The notes below the pieces were generated by a model, which did not search any database, had not been told where the DNA came from, and worked only from the letters and a program-made list of their open reading frames with translations. Shown one piece after another: positions 896-52,505 of a stretch of DNA of 64,000 bases. The position numbers and the translations under genes are program-made. This stretch comes from an uncultured Acidobacteriota bacterium (GTDB taxonomy: Bacteria; Acidobacteriota; Vicinamibacteria; Vicinamibacterales; 2-12-FULL-66-21), in NCBI GenBank assembly GCA_963776315.1, contig CAVZMJ010000007.1, forward strand, positions 69,752-133,751. The letters are read 5' to 3'. Each line of letters starts with the position of its first letter. The first letter of the stretch is position 1.

Positions 896-1750
896 TCAGA
901 ACAACAGCCGGATGCCTGCCCCGGCGTAGACGCCTCCCGCATCGACCGAGATCGTCCGATTGCCCGGCGCGTCGAGATCGACTGACGCTTTGGAGTACCG
1001 CACCAGCCCGCCGACGCCGAAACGGGGATTGAACATCCACATCACGTCGGCGCCGACGTTGAACGCAGGCGCCGAGCCTTTCTCCCGCGTCAGCCGCGCC
1101 GAGGCGAACGCGGCAGCGTCGAACGGGTAGGTCTCGGTGACGGTGACCTCGGTGACGATGTCCTGCTGGACCGAGAAGAACGACGGGCCCCCGGACAGGA
1201 CGAGCCGCAGCCGGCCGCCGGGATTCACCAGGTACATCGCCTGGACGTGCACGGCCGTCTCCGACCGCTTCACGCCGGTGGCTTCGCCCGTGACCTCGCG
1301 CGGCTGGTTGAAGAAGAAGGGGTGCGGAACGCTCGACGTCGTGCTGGCCACATCGTCGCGCGTGAAAAAGGAAACTGAGACTCCCGCGGCGAGGTTGTTC
1401 CAGAACCGGTAGCCCGCCCCGGCGTCGAAGATGAATCCGCCCTGAACGGGATAGTCGACGCTCGTTGATCCGGTCTCGAGGTTGCGCTCGAACTCGAACC
1501 GGTCGCTGAAGTCGTTCGAGGTGGCCTGGTACCCGCCGTTGAGGCTGACGTGGACTCGCTCGGGCCAGCTCTGGGCGGTCGCGGGAGCGGCGACGCAGAG
1601 CCCGAGCGCAAGGCAGACGAGGCCGACGATCACGGCACGATGAGCACGATGATTCGACCCGATTCGCCCCGTCGGGCTTCGTCGAGGTTTCGCCGAAGCG
1701 CTTCGCGCGAGGGCGGATGGGCACGACGAATTCCTCCATGCCTTGTTCAT
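896..1750 (-). CDS. outer-membrane beta-barrel protein (porin/OmpA-like barrel family)
   Basis: This is the C-terminal part of the fused ORF 896..3469. It has a signal-like segment VIVGLVCLALGLCVAAPATAQS, an alternating beta-strand pattern and the ending ..GAGIRLLF, with the terminal Phe typical of outer-membrane barrels. The start is uncertain (ATG 1750 or 1759, or GTG 1633) because 1631-1780 is a cacgatg/catcgtg inverted repeat. Confidence 0.65.
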   Translation of the reverse strand: MNKAWRNSSCPSALARSASAKPRRSPTGRIGSNHRAHRAVIVGLVCLALGLCVAAPATAQSWPERVHVSLNGGYQATSNDFSDRFEFERNLETGSTSVDYPVQGGFIFDAGAGYRFWNNLAAGVSVSFFTRDDVASTTSSVPHPFFFNQPREVTGEATGVKRSETAVHVQAMYLVNPGGRLRLVLSGGPSFFSVQQDIVTEVTVTETYPFDAAAFASARLTREKGSAPAFNVGADVMWMFNPRFGVGGLVRYSKASVDLDAPGNRTISVDAGGVYAGAGIRLLF

Positions 1751-1818
1751 CGTGGCCATCGTCTCATCGTGTCCATCGTGACGGACGCACGTGGGTCTTG
1801 CAGTGACGACGCGCATCC

Positions 1819-12378: not shown

Positions 12379-12617
12379 CCGGGGACACTCAATCGGGACA
12401 CTCAACCGGGACAGTCACGGGGGACATTCAACCTTGAGTGTCCCCGGAGGTTTGACCACGCCTTGTGCAGTTTCTGCCATAGGCAGGCCGTTTCGAGGGT
12501 TGCCAGGGTGAGTACCTGTGGTGAGTTCATGAAAGATCGTCGCCGACCTGAGTTGCCTGTTCCAACAAACCGGCCCCGGGGACAGTCAAGAGTGACTGTC
12601 CCGGTTGAGTGTCCCCG
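12379..12617. repeat. inverted arrays of a 12-13-nt unit (cgggacaYtcaa) around a short-core variant
   Basis: Positions 12379-12448 hold four tandem units followed by an inverted copy (cttgagtgtccccgg). Positions 12574-12617 hold ccccggggacagtcaag/agtgactgtcccggttgagtgtccccg. The spacer between them contains gtttcgagggttgcc (12490-12504). Confidence 0.8.
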
Positions 12618-23093: not shown

Positions 23094-23189
23094 ACGGCTG
23101 CTGCTTCACGCTTACTTCGAACCCGAACCCCGAGCCCCGAGCCTTGCGCCCTTTCCCATCCTCCGTGTACTCTTCTCCCGCGCGTTCCC

Positions 23190-23594: not shown

Positions 23595-23800
23595 GCGGAT
23601 GATAAGAACCACGGACAGCTCCGGACGCGGATCACGGAGGCACGAGACGCGGATCACGCGGATCATGGATAACACGGGACGCGGATCAGGCGGATCACGG
23701 ACAACGCGAGATGTGGATCACAAAGATTACGAACAACCTGATGACAAGCCCCGAACCCACAGCCTTGAGCTCCCGAGCCCCGAACGCCGAATCCCGACCA
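23595..23800. repeat. degenerate tandem repeats rich in gcggatca units, followed by ccccgaa-type units
   Basis: The unit cggatca occurs about 7 times between 23628 and 23722. Units ccccgaa/cccgagc occur at 23746-23799. The region fills the spacer upstream of the PilZ gene. Confidence 0.7.
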
Positions 23801-34949: not shown

Positions 34950-35117
34950 GGTTCAGGGTTCAAGGTTCAGGGTTCAAGGTTCAGCGTTCAAGGTTCAAAG
35001 GTTGCTCCAAGCGAAGGGGTTCTGAACCTGAACCCTGAACCCTGAACCCTGAACCCTGAACCCTGAACCCTGAACCCTGAACCCTGAACCCTGAACCCTG
35101 AACCCTGAACCCTGAAC
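34950..35117. repeat. asymmetric composite heptamer palindrome (copy F) ending in (CCCTGAA)x12
   Basis: The left arm has 7 units of ggttca(g/a) (34950-34998). The centre is short (aggttgctccaagcgaagggg). The right arm is ttctgaa cctgaa followed by 12 perfect ccctgaa units (35033-35116), and it abuts the stop of the gene at 35117. Confidence 0.92.
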
Positions 35118-39551: not shown

Positions 39552-40208
39552 ATGTGCCGCATCGGATCCGTCATCGTCGCTCTGTGCATCGCTGTTGCCG
39601 TTCCGCTGCACGCGCAGCGGAGCCGAACGACAGGAAAGAAACCGGTGCCGGCACCCAAGCCGGTGCCGAAGACGGAGCCGGCGGCGGTCACGTGTCCCGA
39701 GCAGCTGGGGACGGGGCTCAGGACCAAGCTGCAGTTCTGCTTCGTGCTCGCGGGTCGGGATCCGGCCGAGGGCGTGCTCGTGGCGATTCCGCCGCACACG
39801 CAGGCGACGCTGACCTTCGATCTGCACAACAGGCACACCTACTCTGAAGAAGAGATCCGGGCGGGCCGCGGTTTCGCGAAGTACACCGCTGTCATCGGCG
39901 TGCTGTCGATGACCGGCGACCTCCTCGGTCGCGGTGCGGTGCAGACGGAATTCCGGGCGGTCAAGGATCTGTTCGATCGCATCACCGGCGGCGCCGGCCC
40001 GGGTGGGACCAAGGCGGTCGCGCCGCTCGGCCGCGAGCAGGTCAGCATCACCATCCCGGCAGGTGTCGATCAGGTGAGCCTGCTCGGCGAAGTCCTGGAA
40101 GCGACCACGGCCGCCGGCCGCGAGGTGGCCACGCCGGGACGGCCCGTCGCGATCGTCAGCAACGTGCAGGTCACTTACCTGCCCGCACCGCCGCCACGGA
40201 AGAAGTAG
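39552..40208 (+). CDS. secreted hypothetical protein
   Basis: ORF 39552..40208 has a signal peptide (MCRIGSVIVALCIAVAVPLHAQ) and a Pro/Lys-rich linker. I recognise no motif. Confidence 0.55.
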   Translation: MCRIGSVIVALCIAVAVPLHAQRSRTTGKKPVPAPKPVPKTEPAAVTCPEQLGTGLRTKLQFCFVLAGRDPAEGVLVAIPPHTQATLTFDLHNRHTYSEEEIRAGRGFAKYTAVIGVLSMTGDLLGRGAVQTEFRAVKDLFDRITGGAGPGGTKAVAPLGREQVSITIPAGVDQVSLLGEVLEATTAAGREVATPGRPVAIVSNVQVTYLPAPPPRKK

Positions 40209-40217
40209 GTGATTCTA

Positions 40218-40330
40218 GAGGTTCAGGGTTCAGGGTTCAGCGTTCAGAGTTCAACGTTCAGCGTTCTTGTGAACCCTGAACCGTGAACCTTGAACCCTGA
40301 ACCGTGAACCCTGAACCCTGAACCCGTTCA
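40218..40330. repeat. core-less heptamer hairpin (ggttcag-type arms)
   Basis: About 7 units of (g/c)gttca(g/a/c), a ttgt loop, then about 9 units of gaacc(c/g/t)t. Confidence 0.85.
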
Positions 40331-40345
40331 AGCTATGATCGCCTG

Positions 40346-41360
40346 ATGGTACTTCGTGACGTCATCGTCGTTGGTGCGGGTCCGGCGGGGCTGGCCACCG
40401 CAATCGCCGCTTCCAAGAGCAAGTTGTCCTGTCAGGTCATCGAAAAGGGCGCGCTCGTCAATTCGCTCCTGCACTATCCGACTGAGATGGTGTTCTTCAC
40501 GACCCCCGAGCTGATGGAAATCGGGGGCATGCCGTTTGTCAGTCCCTACGACAAGCCGACGCGCCTCGAGGCGCTTCGCTATTACCGGCGCGTGTCCGAC
40601 GCCTTCAAGCTGGACATCGTATTCGACGAGGCTGTTGTCGCGGTGAGCCGCGACGCATGTCGCCCGACGGGTCGCCCGACGGCGCCGGGTCGTTCGTCGT
40701 CGACACGCATTCGACACGCGGCGTGCGCCGGTCGCTTCACGGACGAACGGTCGTCGTCGCCACTGGCGCGTACGACATTCCCAATCGCATCGGCGTCCCG
40801 GGCGAGGATCTGCCGCACGTCTCGCACTACTACACGCAGCCGCACCGTTCTTCCGGAAGAAGGTGGTGATCGTCGGCGGGAAGAACTCCTCGGCCGAGGC
40901 CGCGCTCGACCTCTATCGAGCCGGCGCGCAGGTCACGATCGTGCACCGCGGCGCCGGCGATGGGAGATTCCATCAAGTACTGGGTCAAGCCCGACATCGA
41001 CAACCGCATCAAGGAAGGCTCGATCCGTGCGCGCTTCAACACGCACGTCGTCGAGATCCGCCCGACGAGCGTGGTCGTCGAGCGCGAAGGCGTGACCGAC
41101 GAGATCGACGGCCGACGCGGTGTTCCTGCTGACCGGCTACGGCGCGGACACGACGCTGCTGCGGAACGCCGGAATCGAGATCGATCCCGTGACGTGCGGC
41201 CCGGTCTTCGACGCCGAGACGTTCGAGACCAACGTGCCGGGAATCTACGCCGTGGGGCGCGATGGTGGCGGGCGTCCAGAGCGGCCGGATCTTCATCGAG
41301 AACGGCCGCTTCCACGGCGAGAAGGTGATTGAGGCGATCGCGGCAAGACTGCGGAGATAA
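40346..41360 (+). pseudogene. YpdA-family FAD/NAD(P)-dependent disulfide reductase-like protein, 5 frame changes
   Basis: Motifs are MVLRDVIVVGAGPAGLATAIAA.. and ..VNSLLHYPTEMVFFTTPELMEIGGMPF..KPTRLEALRYYRRV... Pieces lie in ORFs 40346.., 40657.., 40863.., 40960.. and 41120.., with a last frame from 41262 to TAA 41358-41360. Confidence 0.75.
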
Positions 41361-42305: not shown

Positions 42306-43583
42306 GTGAACCGTCCTCGTCTTTTTGTCCATGTAGTCCATCAGCACGTACTTGCCGAGCGTCCGCGGCGTCGTGAAGTACGCCTTGCCGTGGCAGATCT
42401 CGGCGACCTTGCGGACGAAGCTGACGAGATCGTGGTCGCGCGCCAGCATGAACGTATTGATGAGGATGCCGGCCTTGCGGCACGCGGCGACCTCCGCGAA
42501 CGTTTCAGAGACGATGAACGGGTCGAGGCCGAAGGCGTTGCGATAGATGCGGCCGTCGGGGCGCGTGAGCGCCGACGGCTTGCCGTCGGTGATCATGATG
42601 ATCTGCCGCATGTCCTTGCGCTGCCGCTCGAGGAGGCGCCGCGCGAGCCGCAGGCCTTCGCGCGTGTTGGTGTAGTACGGCCCGACCCGCACGCGCGCGA
42701 GCTGACTGAGCGGGATCTCTTCGGCCGAGTCGTGGAACAGCACGACCTGAAGGGCGTCGCCAGGGTACTGCAGCCGAATCAGGTTGGCGAGCGCCAGCGC
42801 GACGCGCTTGGCCGGCGTGAACCGGTCTTCGCCGTAGAGGATCATGCTGTGGCTGCAGTCCAGCATCAGGACCGTCGCGCAGGAGCTCTGATACTCGCCC
42901 TGGACGACCATCAGATCTTCGTAATCGACCTCGACAGCCGGCCCGCCGACACTCAGCTGCCGCCTGACGGCGTTGAGGATCGTGGTGCTGGCGTCGATGT
43001 TCATCGTGTCGCCGAACTCGTAGGCCTTGGGTGCGCCGCTCGCCTCGATGCCGGTCGACATCTCGCGCGTGTCGTGGCGGCCGAGGCTGCTCTTGCCGAT
43101 GGAGCCCAGCAGGTCGCGGAGGGCGCGGTAGCCGAGAAAGTCGAGACTCTTGTCGGTGATCTCGAAGCGTAGGCTGCCGTCCTGCCGGCCCTGACCGCCG
43201 CCCTGGCCTTCACGTCCTTCGCGAGTCGACGGATCCGGACTCTGTGGTGCTCCGGTCAGATACCCCTGATGCTGCAGCTTCTCGATGATCCGCCGGATGA
43301 GGTCGTCGAGCCGCTCTTCGGCATCCTCGGCCTGCTGCCAGTCCTTGCCGAGCAGCTTCTCGAGCGTCTCATCCGAGAGCATGCCACCGTTGAGGATCGC
43401 CTCGAGGATGGCATCGTGCAGCGACTGCGCCGAGTGTCCCGGCCCGTCATCGTCGTCGTACGGCAGCCCGTAGGGGCTGTCGAAGCCACTCGAGAGCAGC
43501 AGATCGGACAGACGCGAGAGCAGATCCTCGAGGTCGATCTCGTCGAGGTCGTCGCCGGTGAACTTGGAGTAGCGATACTTCAT
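42303..43583 (-). CDS. von Willebrand factor A (vWA) domain protein, partner of the upstream ChlI-like ATPase
   Basis: ORF 42303..43583 is intact. It has an acidic N-terminal region and a vWA core with a MIDAS-like motif (LMLDCSHSM .. MITDGKPS). Confidence 0.75.
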
Positions 43584-43658
43584 TCAGCTCTCAGCCGTCC
43601 AGCTCTCAGCTATCAGCTCTCTGCTCCAGCTGACAGCTGATGGCTGACGGCTGAGAGC
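43584..43658. repeat. core-less heptamer hairpin between the ATPase and vWA genes
   Basis: Units are of the cagctct/tcagctg type. A 13-bp perfect outer stem pairs gctctcagccgtc (43587-43599) with gacggctgagagc (43646-43658). Confidence 0.8.
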
Positions 43659-43663
43659 GCGCC

Positions 43664-45212
43664 TCAGTTGTAGTACTTCTTCTTGTTGCCCGGCACCTGT
43701 CCTGGCATCTGAATGTCTCGCTCGATCATCTGTTCGGGCGTGACGCCGCGCGGGGCCCGCCGTGTCGGCTCGGCGCCCTGGTACTGAAACTCCTCCGAGC
43801 GGCTGATCTTCTTCTGTGCGTAGAGCCCCTCGAGGATGAAGTCGACGGCTGACGCCATCAGCGGGGCGGGGGCTCCGGCGTCGACGCCGGCGTGCGTCGC
43901 GAGCTCGCGCACGCCCTGCACCTGGGCCACCCGCGTCAGCAGTTCGGCGGCCGGAAGGGAGTCGTCTATCTGCAGCGTTCCTCCGAGATCGAACCACTCG
44001 GTGACCTGCTTGAGCTCGACGCCGGCGAAGTAGCCGCCAAAGACGTTGCCGACCGCGGCGCGAATGATGTCGCGCGCCACGTTGTCGGCGCCGCGCAGCT
44101 CGCCTTCGTACTCGAGCTCGAACTTGCCGGTGATCGCCGGCAGGGCAGCGTAGATGTCGGTGATGCGAGGCACGATGACCGGCTCGCCGGCGAGGAGGGC
44201 GCGGCGCTCGGCGCTCGAGACGACGTTTTCGAGGAGCGAGATGGGCAGCCGCTGGCTCACGCCCGACCGCTTGTCGATCTTCTGATCCTGGCGCGCCTGG
44301 AACGCGATCTCCTCGACGACTTCACGGACGAACGCGGGAACCGAGAGCGCGCAGCCGTCGCGCTCGACCCAGGCTTCCTGCGCGGTGATCGCCATCGCGT
44401 GCTGACGCGTCGCGGGATAGTGCGTGCGGATCTCCGAGCCGATGCGGTCCTTGAGCGGCGTGATGATCTTGCCGCGCGCGGTGTAGTCCTCGGGGTTCGC
44501 GCTGAAGACGAGCAGGACGTCGAGCGGCAGCCGCACCGGGTAGCCCTTAATCTGGACGTCGCCTTCCTGCAGGATGTTGAAGAGGCCCACCTGGACCTTC
44601 CCGGCGAGGTCCGGCAGCTCGTTGACGGCGAAGACGCCGCGGTTCGCGCGCGGCAGCAGCCCGTAGTGCATCGTCAGCTCGTCGGAGAGCTGCAGGCCCG
44701 CCCGCGCGGCCTTGATCGGATCGAGGTCGCCGATGAGGTCGGCGATCGTGACGTCGGGCGTCGCGAGCTTTTCGACGTAGCGCGCGTCGCGGTCGAGCCA
44801 GGCGATGGGCAGGTCGTCGCCGGCCTCCCGCACGCGCGCGCGGCATGCGGAGCAGAGCGGCGACAGCGGGTCGTCATGGATCTCGCAGCCGGGCACGACC
44901 GGGAATCGACTCGTCGAGCAGGCCGACGAGCGCGCGAAGAATCCGGCTCTTGGCCTGACCGCGCAGTCCGAGGAGGATGAAGTTGTGGCGCGACAGGATC
45001 GCGTTGACGATCTGCGGCACGACCGTGTCGTCGAAGCCGATGATCCCCGGGAAGAGCGGCTCGCGCGACCGGAGACGCTCGATCAGGTTGCCGCGAATCT
45101 CGTCCTTGACGCTGCGTCGCGGGACCCGGCCGGCGGCCACCTCGGTGCGGAGCTGAGCCAGGGTAGCCGGCCGGGAGGCCGAAGACATTGAGCGCGAGAC
45201 CGAGGAACGCAT
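43664..45212 (-). pseudogene. AAA+ ATPase of the Mg-chelatase ChlI / sigma-54-interaction-like family, one frame change near 44890
   Basis: ORF 44874..45212 (..[42 protein letters not shown]..) continues in ORF 43664..44896 (..[35 protein letters not shown]..). Confidence 0.75.
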
Positions 45213-45242: not shown

Positions 45243-46100
45243 ATGAGGGCCTTGGCCGAGTTTTCTCAGCCCGGGCTGTCCCGGCCGCTCGTGTTCGCCC
45301 ATCGCGGCGGCGCCGCGCTGCGGCCGGAGAACACGATGGCGGCGTTCGACCACGGACTGTCGCTCGGCGCCGACGGTGTCGAGCTCGACGTTCATCTGTC
45401 GCGCGACGGCGTCGTCGTCGTGCATCACGACGACACGCTCGAGCGCACGACGGACGCGAGCGGGCCGATTGCCGCGCGGAGCGCGGATGAGCTCGCGCAC
45501 GTCGACGCAGGTTACCGGTTCACACCCGACTCGAGTGCGTCTGCACCCGCGCATCCTTTTCGTGGACAGCAGATCGGTGTGCCCCGATTGCGTGCCGTGC
45601 TCGAGCGGCATCCGGCCGCCCGGGTCATCATCGAGCTCAAGACGCCCGAGGCCGAGCTGGCGCACCGGACGATCGACGATGTCCGCGCGGCGGGCGCGGT
45701 CGACCGCGTCGTGCTCGGTTCCTTCCACTGGCGCGCGCTCGACGCGGCGCGCCGCTACGAGCCACGCATTCCGACCGGTGCCGCAAGCGAAGAGACGCGG
45801 TGGGCGCTGTACCGATCGCGCGTGCGCTGGCCGCTCGGCCGGACGAAGTACCGCGAGTTCCAGGTGCCGGAGCGCTCGGGCGCGACGGTGATCGTCACGC
45901 CGCAGTTCATCGCGCACGCTCACCGCGCTGGCCTGCCGGTTCGCATCTGGACCGTCGACGAGCGCGAGGACATGGTGCGGCTCCTGGAGTGGGGCGCCGA
46001 CAGCGTGATCAGCGACCGTCCGGACATAGCCGTGCCGGTGGTGCGCGAGTGGGCCAGCGGGTCAAACCGGGGTCAGACCAAAGGTCTGACCCCGGTTTGA
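45243..46100 (+). CDS. glycerophosphodiester phosphodiesterase
   Basis: ORF 45243..46100 has ..VFAHRGG..ENT..AF.. and ..GADGVELDVHLSRDGVVVVHHDDTLERTT... The last ~12 codons are read from an 18-bp perfect hairpin. Confidence 0.85.
   Translation: MRALAEFSQPGLSRPLVFAHRGGAALRPENTMAAFDHGLSLGADGVELDVHLSRDGVVVVHHDDTLERTTDASGPIAARSADELAHVDAGYRFTPDSSASAPAHPFRGQQIGVPRLRAVLERHPAARVIIELKTPEAELAHRTIDDVRAAGAVDRVVLGSFHWRALDAARRYEPRIPTGAASEETRWALYRSRVRWPLGRTKYREFQVPERSGATVIVTPQFIAHAHRAGLPVRIWTVDEREDMVRLLEWGADSVISDRPDIAVPVVREWASGSNRGQTKGLTPV
46062..46100. other. 18-bp perfect inverted repeat between convergent genes (possible bidirectional terminator, no T-tract)
   Basis: The sequence is tcaaaccggggtcagacc aaa ggtctgaccccggtttga. 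It is followed by a partial third copy (ccccggtctg). Confidence 0.6.
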
Positions 46101-46118
46101 CCCCGGTCTGCCCCCCGC

Positions 46119-51016: not shown

Positions 51017-52351
51017 ATGAGGACCATGCCAACCGATTTCATACTTCCAGAACTGGGCGAGAACATCGCCGGCGGCGATGTCGTCCGCGTGCTCGTCGCG
51101 GCCGGCGACAGCGTGAAGAAGGATCAGCCGGTCCTCGAGCTCGAAACCGACAAGGCGACAATCGAGGTGCCCTCCTCGGTGAGTGGGACCGTCACGGCGG
51201 TGAGGATCAAACAGGGCGAGCGCGTGAAAGTCGGACAGGTCGTGCTGACGTTCGACAGCAGCGCCACACCGGCGAAAGAGGCACCCAAGGTGCCCCAGCC
51301 CGAACCGGCGACTCCGGCTCCGGCGGCAGCAGCCGAGCCCGCGGCGGTCGCGCCGGCGGCAGCTCCCGAACCGAAGCCCAAACGAGCCGAGGTCGTCGAC
51401 ATTAGGGGAGGCGCGCGCAACGTTCCGGTCGCGCAGCCGGCGGCCGAGGCTGACTCCCAGGGACCGGCCGCACCCGCCGCGCCTTCGGTGCGGCGCCTCG
51501 CCCGCGAGCTCGGCGTCGACATCCGCCGCGTCGCCGGCAGCGGCCCGGCCGGCCGCATCAGTGCCGACGACGTGCAGGCGTTCGTGCGCAACGCCATGGC
51601 AGGAGGCATCCCCGCCGCTGGCGCGCCATCGTCGCTGCCCGACTTCAGCAAGTGGGGCGAAGTCGAGCGCAAGGCGATGAGCAACATCCGCCGCAAGACG
51701 GCCGAGCACCTCACCCACGCCTGGAACGCGATTCCGCATGTCACGCAGCACGACAAGGCGGATATTACGGCGCTCGAGACCCTGCGCAAGCAGTTCAGTC
51801 CGCAGGCGGAGAAAGCCGGCGGGAAGCTGACGATGACGGCCATTGCGCTCAAGATTGTCGCGGCCGCGCTCGGGAAGTTCCCGCAGTTCAACTCGTCGAT
51901 CGACATCGCGCGCAACGAGATCGTCTACAAGAAATCGATTCACGTCGGCGTCGCCGCCGACACCGAGCGCGGACTCCTCGTGCCGGTGATTCGCGACGTC
52001 GATCGCAAGGGCATTATCCAGCTCGCCGCCGAGCTCGGCGCTGCGTCCGACAAGGCGCGCGCCGGCAAGCTCTCGCTCGACGACATGCAGGGCGCCGGCT
52101 TCACCATCACCAACCTCGGCGGCATCGGCGGCACCTCGTTCACGCCCATCGTGAATTGGCCGGAGGTCGCGATTCTCGGCATCTCGCGGGGGGCGCGCGA
52201 ACCGGTGTACGTCAACGGCGCGTTCGAGCCGCGGCTGATGCTGCCGCTCTCGCTCTCCTACGACCATCGCGTGATCGACGGCGCCGACGCGGCCCGGTTC
52301 CTGCGCTGGGTTGCCGAAGCGTTCGAACAACCGTTTGTCATGTCCCTTTAG
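51017..52351 (+). CDS. aceF: dihydrolipoyllysine-residue acetyltransferase (E2 of pyruvate dehydrogenase)
   Basis: ORF 51017..52351 is intact. It has a lipoyl domain (..LETDKATIEVPS..), an Ala/Pro linker, a subunit-binding domain (PSVRRLARELGVD) and a catalytic domain (..LSLSYDHRVIDGA..). An ATG at 51026 is an alternative start. Confidence 0.92.
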   Translation: MRTMPTDFILPELGENIAGGDVVRVLVAAGDSVKKDQPVLELETDKATIEVPSSVSGTVTAVRIKQGERVKVGQVVLTFDSSATPAKEAPKVPQPEPATPAPAAAAEPAAVAPAAAPEPKPKRAEVVDIRGGARNVPVAQPAAEADSQGPAAPAAPSVRRLARELGVDIRRVAGSGPAGRISADDVQAFVRNAMAGGIPAAGAPSSLPDFSKWGEVERKAMSNIRRKTAEHLTHAWNAIPHVTQHDKADITALETLRKQFSPQAEKAGGKLTMTAIALKIVAAALGKFPQFNSSIDIARNEIVYKKSIHVGVAADTERGLLVPVIRDVDRKGIIQLAAELGAASDKARAGKLSLDDMQGAGFTITNLGGIGGTSFTPIVNWPEVAILGISRGAREPVYVNGAFEPRLMLPLSLSYDHRVIDGADAARFLRWVAEAFEQPFVMSL

Positions 52352-52370
52352 CTACGAACCCTATTGCAGT

Positions 52371-52468
52371 CACGAGACAATCACGATGGACACGATGGCA
52401 CGATGAACACGATGATGTTGGTTTCATCGTGTCCATCGTGTCATCGTGCCCATCGTGCGAGGATCGTG
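52371..52468. repeat. core-less heptamer hairpin (cacgatg / catcgtg) in the aceF-lpdA spacer
   Basis: The left arm is cacgaga caatcacgatg gacacgatg gcacgatg aacacgatg. The loop is atgttggtt. The right arm is tcatcgtg tccatcgtg tcatcgtg cccatcgtg cgaggatcgtg. Confidence 0.9.
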
Positions 52469-52505
52469 CAGCCGTTAGATAGTTCAGACTAAACCTCCGG
52501 ACACT

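Follow-up and report, generated by a model that had tools for sequence, protein, structure and literature searches.

The analyzed window is a stretch of 64,000 nt, which corresponds to positions 69752-133751 of contig 7 (C7) of the focal genome G000, a metagenome-assembled genome (MAG) of 7.2 Mb with a G+C content of 66%. The LpdA protein encoded in the window matched soil MAGs of the Vicinamibacterales (Acidobacteriota) with identities of up to 93%. Three spacers of this window are occupied by large inverted repeats, which are called hairpins 1, 2 and 3 here. Hairpin 1 follows the stop codon of a plus-strand gene, hairpin 2 lies between the aceF and lpdA genes, and hairpin 3 is located between two minus-strand genes (Table 1). 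The sequences of all three agreed with an initial annotation, which had described them as core-less hairpins with a freely chosen heptamer and a conserved complementarity of the arms.

Table 1. Positions of the three hairpins and of associated features in the window (z, folding energy relative to dinucleotide shuffles)
Feature	Position	Strand	Remarks
Second CACGATG element in the window	1627-1790		arms ~1635-1652 and 1747-1780, long centre
TAG stop of gene upstream of hairpin 1	40206-40208	+	~10 nt ahead of hairpin 1
Hairpin 1, GGTTCAN/NTGAACC heptamer palindrome	40218-40330		left arm 40221-40266, loop ~40267-40269, right arm 40270-40325; z -11
TATGAT, -10-like hexamer	40334-40339	+	6 nt ahead of ATG at 40346
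ATG of downstream minus-strand gene	43581-43583	-	abuts hairpin 3 directly
Hairpin 3, AGCTNTC/GANAGCT heptamer palindrome	43584-43658		fills spacer between two minus-strand genes; z -6.4
TGA stop of upstream minus-strand gene	43664-43666	-	5 nt before hairpin 3
aceF-lpdA spacer, whole	52349-52505		first three bases are the aceF TAG stop; flanks and loop remnant of young subfamily
Hairpin 2	52371-52468		left arm 52382-52414 (4 x CACGATG, spacing 9-8-9), loop 52415-52424, right arm 52425-52457, weaker outer pairs; z -8.3

Tandem arrays were called with Tandem Repeats Finder (TRF). For hairpin 1, the left arm was found to consist of 6.6 units of the GTTCAGC type and the right arm of 8.0 units of TGAACCC. 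Perfect pairing is confined to the outer 20 bp, and internal loops are formed by the inner units because their variable base sits at different positions in the two arms (left arm G[N]G; right arm, as complement, [N]GG). The 21-nt higher-order period also differs between the left and the right arm. Each arm of hairpin 2 comprises 3.8 copies of a 9-nt unit, i.e., CACGATG plus one or two spacer bases, with a period of 9/17; its effective period is 8.5, not 7. Hairpin 3 has a period of 7 at 43584-43631 and 43627-43658, and the 13-bp perfect outer stem that had been ascribed to it is present.

The three hairpins were predicted to be very stable. The folding energies of the plus strand were -69.1, -66.2 and -51.7 kcal/mol for hairpins 1, 2 and 3, respectively, and the means of 200 dinucleotide shuffles per hairpin were -30.6, -37.3 and -30.3 kcal/mol (z = -11.0, -8.3 and -6.4). 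None of the 200 shuffles equalled any of the hairpins, so that the initial annotation, which had proposed this comparison, was borne out in this respect. Folding of the minus strand yielded similar values. None of the three hairpins is followed by a T-run, the terminator scan classified none of the three as terminator-like, and an Rfam scan of the whole window retrieved no family at its gathering score. The hairpins are not assembly artefacts because orthologous hairpins occur in independent MAGs. The description as core-less applies with respect to an A/B core that is shared by other hairpins of the genome; the CACGATG hairpin has a family loop of its own, however. In the orthologues of hairpin 2 in the related genomes G005 and G010 this loop has a length of 21-23 nt and reads AGATCCTG..GGTTGGTTT, and it is about 10 nt shorter in G000.

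Hairpin 2 belongs to a dispersed family with a common plan, namely four CACGATG units per arm with 9-8-9 spacing, a variable loop, and then the inverse arm. In G000, 81 clusters with at least three CACGATG/CATCGTG units were detected, and inverted arms were present in about 60 of them. A search for the array was positive in 10 of 12 genomes of the same genus and negative in all 18 genomes from outside it, and controls with the reversed pattern gave no hits. In the 28 full copies, the unit positions form Watson-Crick pairs in 23-28 of 28 cases, with one exception (15/28), and 19 of 28 positions pair in all copies. The five spacer positions behave differently in that they are purines on the motif strand of one arm and pyrimidines on the other, and their bases assort independently in the 28 copies; at one position, A·C, G·C, A·T and G·T were counted 9, 8, 5 and 5 times, respectively.

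A young subfamily of about 17 near-identical copies can be aligned over about 215 nt and has features of a miniature inverted-repeat transposable element (MITE). The order of its segments is a flanking TA, GAAGCCGTCTCAT, GTCACGA, the arms with the loop GATCCCTGGAGAGGTTTTC, GCCGTCGGCGCGTTCAGCC, ATGAGATAGGTTC and again a flanking TA. The 16-bp terminal inverted repeats, CTAGAAGCCGTCTCAT and its inverse, are flanked by TA, and CTAGAAGCCGTCTCAT matches the inverse of ATGAGATAGGTTCTAG at 13 of 16 positions. TA or CTAG was present at both ends of subfamily copies; in the orthologous comparisons, a different element was found in place and not a clean empty site. Terminal inverted repeats are restricted to this young CACGATG subfamily, and the GGTTCAN and AGCTNTC families have no termini beyond the arrays themselves. 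The hairpin 2 copy shares with the young subfamily the left flank GTCACGA, the right flank GCCGT..GTTCAG and a remnant of the loop, and on the basis of these shared flanks and loop we read the aceF-lpdA spacer as an old, diverged copy of the MITE-like CACGATG element. The spacer is absent in G001, G009 and L002, where aceF and lpdA overlap in a TGATG.

The terminal motif TA-GAAGCYRTCTCAT was also searched separately. It has 202 matches in G000 with up to two mismatches, a good part of which look like chance matches in genes; examples are C7:50021, C10:13984, C14:191437 and C28:17084. It heads several different interiors, i.e., CACGATG hairpins, CRCGAAG hairpins and a GC-rich 'gcgagcgagccacgcgaacggagcg' element, which suggests a single superfamily of MITE-like elements with exchangeable interiors.

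Hairpins 1 and 3 belong to two true heptamer families, GGTTCAN and AGCTNTC, each of which has one degenerate position. In G000, 29 and 24 paired loci, respectively, were found. AGCTNTC arrays were found in all 12 same-genus genomes and are almost absent elsewhere, and each of 10 of these genomes contains 14-37 matches to the GGTTCAG hairpin. Taken with the AATGCTG family, hit numbers in a genome of the genus range from tens to hundreds. AATGCTG represents a sister heptamer family with a fixed 30-nt arm (AATGCTGAATGCTGAGTGCTGAATGCTGAA), a diagnostic third unit and up to 144 copies per genome. The base usage at the degenerate position is the same in both arms, and some inverted-pair copies have loops of zero length. 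The complement of the TGAACCC units contains G3N4 tracts; CACGATG and AGCTNTC are devoid of G-tracts. At the orthologous sites of another GGTTCAG palindrome of G000 (window 34950-35117), the genomes G005, G009 and G001 contain inverted arrays of 1.05-1.45 kb with units of roughly 30-45 nt (cgggacgcggatcacgcggatc...), and a related 32-nt repeat with 3.1 copies is found at 23625-23721 of the window.

A genome-wide census showed that these families are part of a much larger set. Among the tandem repeats of G000, a period of 7 clearly predominates, with 1745 arrays that cover 56 kb. They form 953 clusters, and in 378 of them an inverted partner arm was found whose consensus agrees within one base; in addition, 464 single period-7 arrays were counted. 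The initial annotation had concluded that the identity of the heptamer is free. This was not supported, as every one of the 7-mers defines a dispersed, genus-restricted family in which it is conserved, and the unit vocabulary is narrow. The period-7 arrays comprise 147 canonical units; CTGA/TCAG is present in 42% of the arrays (about 4% would be expected per tetramer according to our own arithmetic), and AGC/GCT in 73%.

An A/B centre was found in 159 of the 378 inverted pairs, and in the remaining 219 the arms are separated by a short gap or by a centre that is unique. The centre and the unit type are tightly linked. GGCTCAG-like arms were cored in 87/97, 25/29 and 16/24 cases, and the A/B core was found with none of 36 AATGCTG and none of 11 CAGCTCT arms. 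GGTTCAG arms occur in both forms, and a recognizable A/B core was present in about a quarter of 29 pairs. The possibility that core-less copies are decayed cored copies was therefore mostly rejected, with the GGTTCAG family as a mixed case. Lack of the core is the normal state of other unit families and not a rare decay, and most core-less copies represent separate families because the A/B core goes almost exclusively with GGCTCAG-like arms. Nevertheless, the cored hairpins of G000 occupy the same spacers and have the same inverted heptamer build, and a cored element is present at the spacer of hairpin 1 in G003.

Next, the orthologous spacers were compared in a syntenic region of about 70 kb from five genomes of the same genus (G003, G005, G010, G009 and G001), which have 80-90% nucleotide identity. 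Turnover of whole elements was observed. At the spacer of hairpin 1, the closest relative, G003, has GGGATCA arms with a type B centre, although the outermost units are still GTTCAGG-like. A GGTTCGN hairpin was found in G010 and GGCTCGC arms in G005. G009 and G001 contain solely the right arm, which begins at the stop codon, and in G011 the spacer consists of about 15 nt without a repeat. At the spacer of hairpin 3, AGCT- or GGCT-type arrays were present in four of the five relatives, with different units and arrangements, and only a GGCTTCC unit beside the ATG was found in G001. A third case is C7:50005-50275, where a young MITE copy takes up precisely the interval from a TAG stop codon to a conserved GGCYRTTTTGTTG; the same site harbors an unrelated palindrome in G003, G005, G009 and G001 and a third kind of element in G010. 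In the G003 orthologue of hairpin 3, a GC-rich repeat of about 110 nt (ccgggggacttcgtcccccggaccccc ttacacgctc ... cgctccgctcgcgtggctc) is inserted in the left arm, and the same repeat is found at a second spacer of the region, the orthologue of window 23118-23143.

The sole part of the hairpin 1 spacer that is conserved across the relatives of the genus is the TATGATC in front of the downstream ATG (40334-40348). It is retained in the spacers of eight of eight relatives, followed by a G in seven cases and by a C in G005, and it looks like a -10 box from which a leaderless mRNA could be transcribed. At a distance of 17 nt upstream of TATGATC, where a -35 region would be expected, lies the final NTGAAC of the right arm. 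The downstream gene (40346-41328) encodes an N-terminus of the FAD/NAD-binding type (MVLRDVIVVGAGPAGLA) and contains a change of frame: the open reading frame 40346-41095 ends as a low-complexity Arg/Ser sequence, and a second one, 40960-41328, overlaps with it. This is probably either an indel error of long-read sequencing or a true frameshift.

The numbers of units were found to vary between orthologues as well as between the two arms of one hairpin, as the initial annotation had expected. For example, the arm at 35022-35117 has 13.9 units with 98% identity, and its partner arm has 7.6 units with 82%. Slippage that affects one arm at a time is thus clear. Within a given genome the two arms always match, and they differ between genomes, which agrees with the initial annotation. 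On the whole, its interpretation was partly supported.

The initial annotation had explained the combination of conserved structure and variable sequence by selection on a hairpin, and it had set independent change of the two arms beforehand as the refuting observation. At the fine scale, independent change is what was found. In 86 informative hairpins, the pairing in the best register was no better than after shuffling the units of one arm (mean z 0.29; p ≤ 0.05 in 2%). Pairing of the degenerate bases amounted to 0.41 for AGCTNTC, 0.54 for GGTTCAN and 0.69 for GGCTCAN, and the respective shuffle means were 0.43, 0.54 and 0.70. In the 204 copies between co-directional genes, 195 mismatches would be G·U and 258 would be A·C in the sense RNA (p = 0.0035). 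A sense-strand excess of G·U as a sign of RNA selection was thus rejected, as the difference has the wrong direction. In summary, no sign of selection for a fold or for pairing was found.

Compensatory changes of the arms seemed to exist in one case. In a four-genome alignment of hairpin 2, three double changes from U-A to A-U were found in G003, where both arms read CRCGAAG. However, the G003 arms start with TCACGATGAGCGCGAAG, which is the signature of a sister subfamily (TCACGATGANCGCGAAG) with 36 copies in G000 and 46 copies in G003. Because the arms carry this signature, the double changes represent the swap of one family member for another, and the apparent covariation between orthologues is due to the exchange of family members. 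Concerted evolution of both arms in situ was also considered for G003 and rejected; the pattern used, three times CACGAAG with a single occurrence in G003, had been too narrow. Hairpin-templated copying, which the initial annotation had offered as a second explanation, predicts arms that are mirror images, but neither the order of the units nor the degenerate positions are mirrored.

The positions of the 378 inverted pairs relative to genes are biased. According to a codon-usage strand caller of our own, which was checked on the window and is not a curated annotation, 204 pairs are located in co-directional, 88 in convergent and 28 in divergent spacers. The ratio of convergent to divergent spacers is about 5.6 standard deviations from 1:1 by our own arithmetic. 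The median distance from the upstream stop codon to the base of the hairpin is 7 nt, with 0-9 nt in 171 of 288 cases, and in a further 122 cases the reading frame enters the hairpin. On the other side, the earliest possible downstream start is at a median distance of 22 nt, and about half of the co-directional copies end at most 20 nt from it. Because the stop codon and the earliest downstream start are both close to the hairpin, the elements nearly fill the spacers.

SbcCD cleaves the hairpins of palindromes, and its loss makes long palindromes viable, as is known from E. coli genetics. A search with the profile TIGR00619 did not find SbcD in G000, nor in 28 of 31 genomes of the order, and the same profile was positive in 13 of 14 control genomes. 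For SbcC, only an N-terminal match of 27 bits was obtained in G000. The apparent lack of SbcCD may explain why palindromes are so abundant in this genome.

The data above show that each of the three hairpins belongs to a dispersed, genus-restricted family, that the arms do not covary at the fine scale, that the elements turn over at orthologous sites and that their position relative to genes is biased. Taken together, these three families probably consist of non-autonomous palindromic elements, of the kind of MITEs or repetitive extragenic palindromic (REP) sequences, which are exchanged as units and undergo slippage afterwards. What follows on how the elements move, on how the missing SbcCD contributes and on side effects at the level of transcription or translation is inferred. 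In one genus of the Vicinamibacterales, the families would have colonized the short spacers that directly follow stop codons. Each element would be built as an inverted repeat of an array of the family motif, i.e., CACGATG-RR-CACGATG-R-CACGATG-RR-CACGATG, (GGTTCAN)n or (AGCTNTC)n, and the arms would be complementary because the elements are built and copied in this form. Whole cassettes would be gained, lost and exchanged at a given spacer, possibly by re-insertion or by ectopic conversion among the members of a family, and for this reason both arms would differ together between species. In the true heptamer families, replication slippage would then alter each arm separately, by 7, 14 or 21 nt at a time. 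Long hairpin-prone elements could persist because the order seems to be devoid of the SbcCD hairpin nuclease, and they would survive only where genes remain undamaged, mainly at the 3'-ends of genes.

Several results weigh against this interpretation. No transposase partner was found for these families. In G000, no pair of terminal repeats encloses a transposase at long range, and there is no DDE_3 (IS630-type) gene, DDE_3 being the sole transposase family that was tested as a MITE partner; an IS630-type partner was rejected, as the DDE_3 loci in the relatives are also devoid of the terminal motif. A link to REP-associated tyrosine transposases (RAYTs) was rejected as well, because neither of the two Y1_Tnp genes of G000 is associated with the heptamers or with CACGATG. 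At the three focal loci, the orthologous comparisons did not reveal a clean pair of an empty and a filled site with a target duplication. Mobility of the GGTTCAN and AGCTNTC families is suggested solely by their dispersal, genus restriction and site turnover, as conserved flanks or termini do not exist. The tight proximity to stop codons and the 3:1 bias for convergent genes would also fit a function as terminators or at 3'-ends, and conserved motifs with free loops and spacers would also fit sequence-specific binding. The gene context derives from the uncurated strand caller, and absences that rest on G000 alone are weak at a completeness of 89.5%.

The first alternative would be that the hairpins are functional structures of the transcript or the DNA that are under selection, namely factor-independent terminators or insulators, stabilizers of 3'-ends that are similar to REPs or bacterial interspersed mosaic elements (BIMEs), or translational couplers. 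The very stable folds, the location of the hairpin base directly behind stop codons, and the preference for convergent over divergent genes are in agreement with this view. However, close relatives have an empty spacer, a single arm or another element at the same sites, the arms do not covary at their degenerate positions, the deficit of G·U in the sense RNA is the opposite of the prediction for selection at the RNA level, and none of the three hairpins has a T-tail or resembles a terminator. A function of this kind is unlikely.

The coupler version of this alternative assumes that the downstream ribosome-binding site is hidden in the stem and opened by the terminating ribosome, and it is in accordance with the short distance of about half of the co-directional copies to the next possible start. 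Hairpin 3 is a candidate, because it spans the region from 5 nt behind a stop codon to the next ATG and buries a GAGAG that resembles a Shine-Dalgarno (SD) motif within its outer stem. In five of five relatives, an AGCT- or GGCT-type unit, which reads GGAAGC or GAGAGC in the mRNA, abuts the ATG. Hairpin 3 may therefore couple the translation of its flanking genes.

A single machinery that recognizes structure instead of sequence could seed, move and swap palindromic cassettes near stop codons in this SbcCD-less order. A nickase or recombinase directed to hairpins would be a candidate, as would a process of replication restart. We regard this as improbable, but, if true, it would explain the replacement of cassette by cassette, the TCAG/GCT vocabulary common to many families, the 7-nt step and the lack of a matching transposase. 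As a sub-case of this reading, hairpins that reach from a stop codon to the next start codon, such as hairpin 3, may act as translational couplers.

A purely local, mutational origin without mobility seems quite doubtful. According to this explanation, slippage expands a seed, and fold-back or hairpin-templated synthesis copies the arm. The different unit numbers of arms and orthologues, the single arms (those of G009 and G001 at the hairpin 1 spacer and the 464 single arrays of the genome) and the zero-length loops are all compatible with it, and the apparent absence of SbcD would spare such products. The arms should be mirror images, however, whereas unit order and degenerate positions are not mirrored and the spacer bases assort independently. 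Furthermore, dispersed copies share features that local events would not produce, i.e., the 9-8-9 spacing, the 16-bp terminal repeats and the variant third unit of AATGCTG, and the narrow, genus-wide vocabulary of units is left unexplained.

Least probable is the idea that the units of the arms are bound sequence-specifically by a protein or by several proteins, either as DNA or as RNA, with a convergent arrangement that displays the motif on both strands and the hairpin as a by-product: near-invariant motif positions with free spacers and loops, spacers that are purines on the motif strand and pyrimidines on the other without covariation, equal base usage at the degenerate position in both arms, and the common CTGA/TCAG would fit, but a large number of motifs exist side by side, orthologous sites can do without a copy, unit numbers vary freely in the heptamer families, and no candidate protein was identified.

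Dispersed palindromic families of the MITE/REP kind can be compared with several known systems. A published description of the families themselves was not found in the literature searched. The nearest published case is the set of convergent GGGAATC heptamer arrays of Xanthomonas. X. campestris and X. axonopodis contain 70-75 convergent pairs on opposite strands per genome, which can form stem-loops or cruciforms (Rehm et al. 2015, PMC4692102). They are more frequent between convergent than between divergent genes, and their length is not conserved between related species (PMC4692102). Common features are the intergenic tandem heptamers, the inverted pairs on opposite strands (378 of 953 clusters in G000) and the variable number of units, which applies to hairpins 1 and 3. 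Hairpin 2 is different, as it has a period of 8-9, a fixed number of units and belongs to a family with MITE-like termini. Furthermore, Xanthomonas has essentially one G-rich unit, which has been studied for G-quadruplex formation, whereas dozens of unit families with 147 canonical units exist here, some with a conserved centre and some with a fixed architecture.

The CACGATG family has more in common with MITEs. The Correia or NEMIS elements of Neisseria are MITEs with terminal inverted repeats flanked by TA/CTAG. The CACGATG elements resemble them in their length of about 150-215 nt, lack of coding capacity, multiple copies, TA-flanked terminal repeats of 16 bp, intergenic and gene-proximal location, and presence or absence at orthologous sites. 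Unlike for the Neisseria elements, no autonomous partner was found, the centre is a hairpin of a four-unit motif array with free spacers, and one terminal motif heads several internal hairpin families.

REPs are single palindromes of 20-40 bp with a GTAG or CGTC tag, which are clustered around a RAYT gene; roles in termination and in the stability of mRNAs have been proposed for them. The high copy number of extragenic palindromes at the 3'-ends of genes is reminiscent of REPs and BIMEs. In contrast, the arms of the hairpins described here are motif arrays of 30-100 nt, and the Y1_Tnp genes are flanked by other repeats, namely the 11-mer GGGGTCAGACC and the 13-mer GGGACACTCAACC. One Y1_Tnp (RAYT-like) gene on C10 (~79.9-80.9 kb) lies between inverted 11-mer arrays, GGGGTCAGACC / GGTCTGACCCC (L114 1067-1111 and 2056-2103), which is a REPtron-like layout, and the 11-mer array is also present in the window at 46083-46115. 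The second gene (C10 ~482.6 kb) adjoins a 13-mer array (L113 1089-1132), and an array of four copies of this 13-mer is also present in the window at 12382-12433.

The STRR (short tandemly repeated repetitive) heptanucleotide repeats of heterocystous cyanobacteria are mostly direct arrays. They are similar in that the intergenic regions of a single lineage are enriched in several different tandem heptamers. Heptamers of Calothrix are also mentioned in the Xanthomonas study, and only a few inverted pairs are reported for Nostoc (Rehm et al., PMC4692102).

With the hairpins as members of dispersed palindromic families, the apparent conservation of structure with free sequence would become a radiation of such families in one genus, whose members are swapped between close species and take up a considerable part of the spacers that follow genes. 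For the annotation of these genomes, this would mean that spacers, some stop codons, and possibly -35 regions and ribosome-binding sites consist of repeat DNA. For the comparative genomics of the Acidobacteriota, it is of note that intergenic regions cannot be aligned even at a genome identity of 88%. Lastly, the genus would offer a natural system in which to ask how long hairpin-forming DNA arises and is tolerated in bacteria that lack SbcCD.

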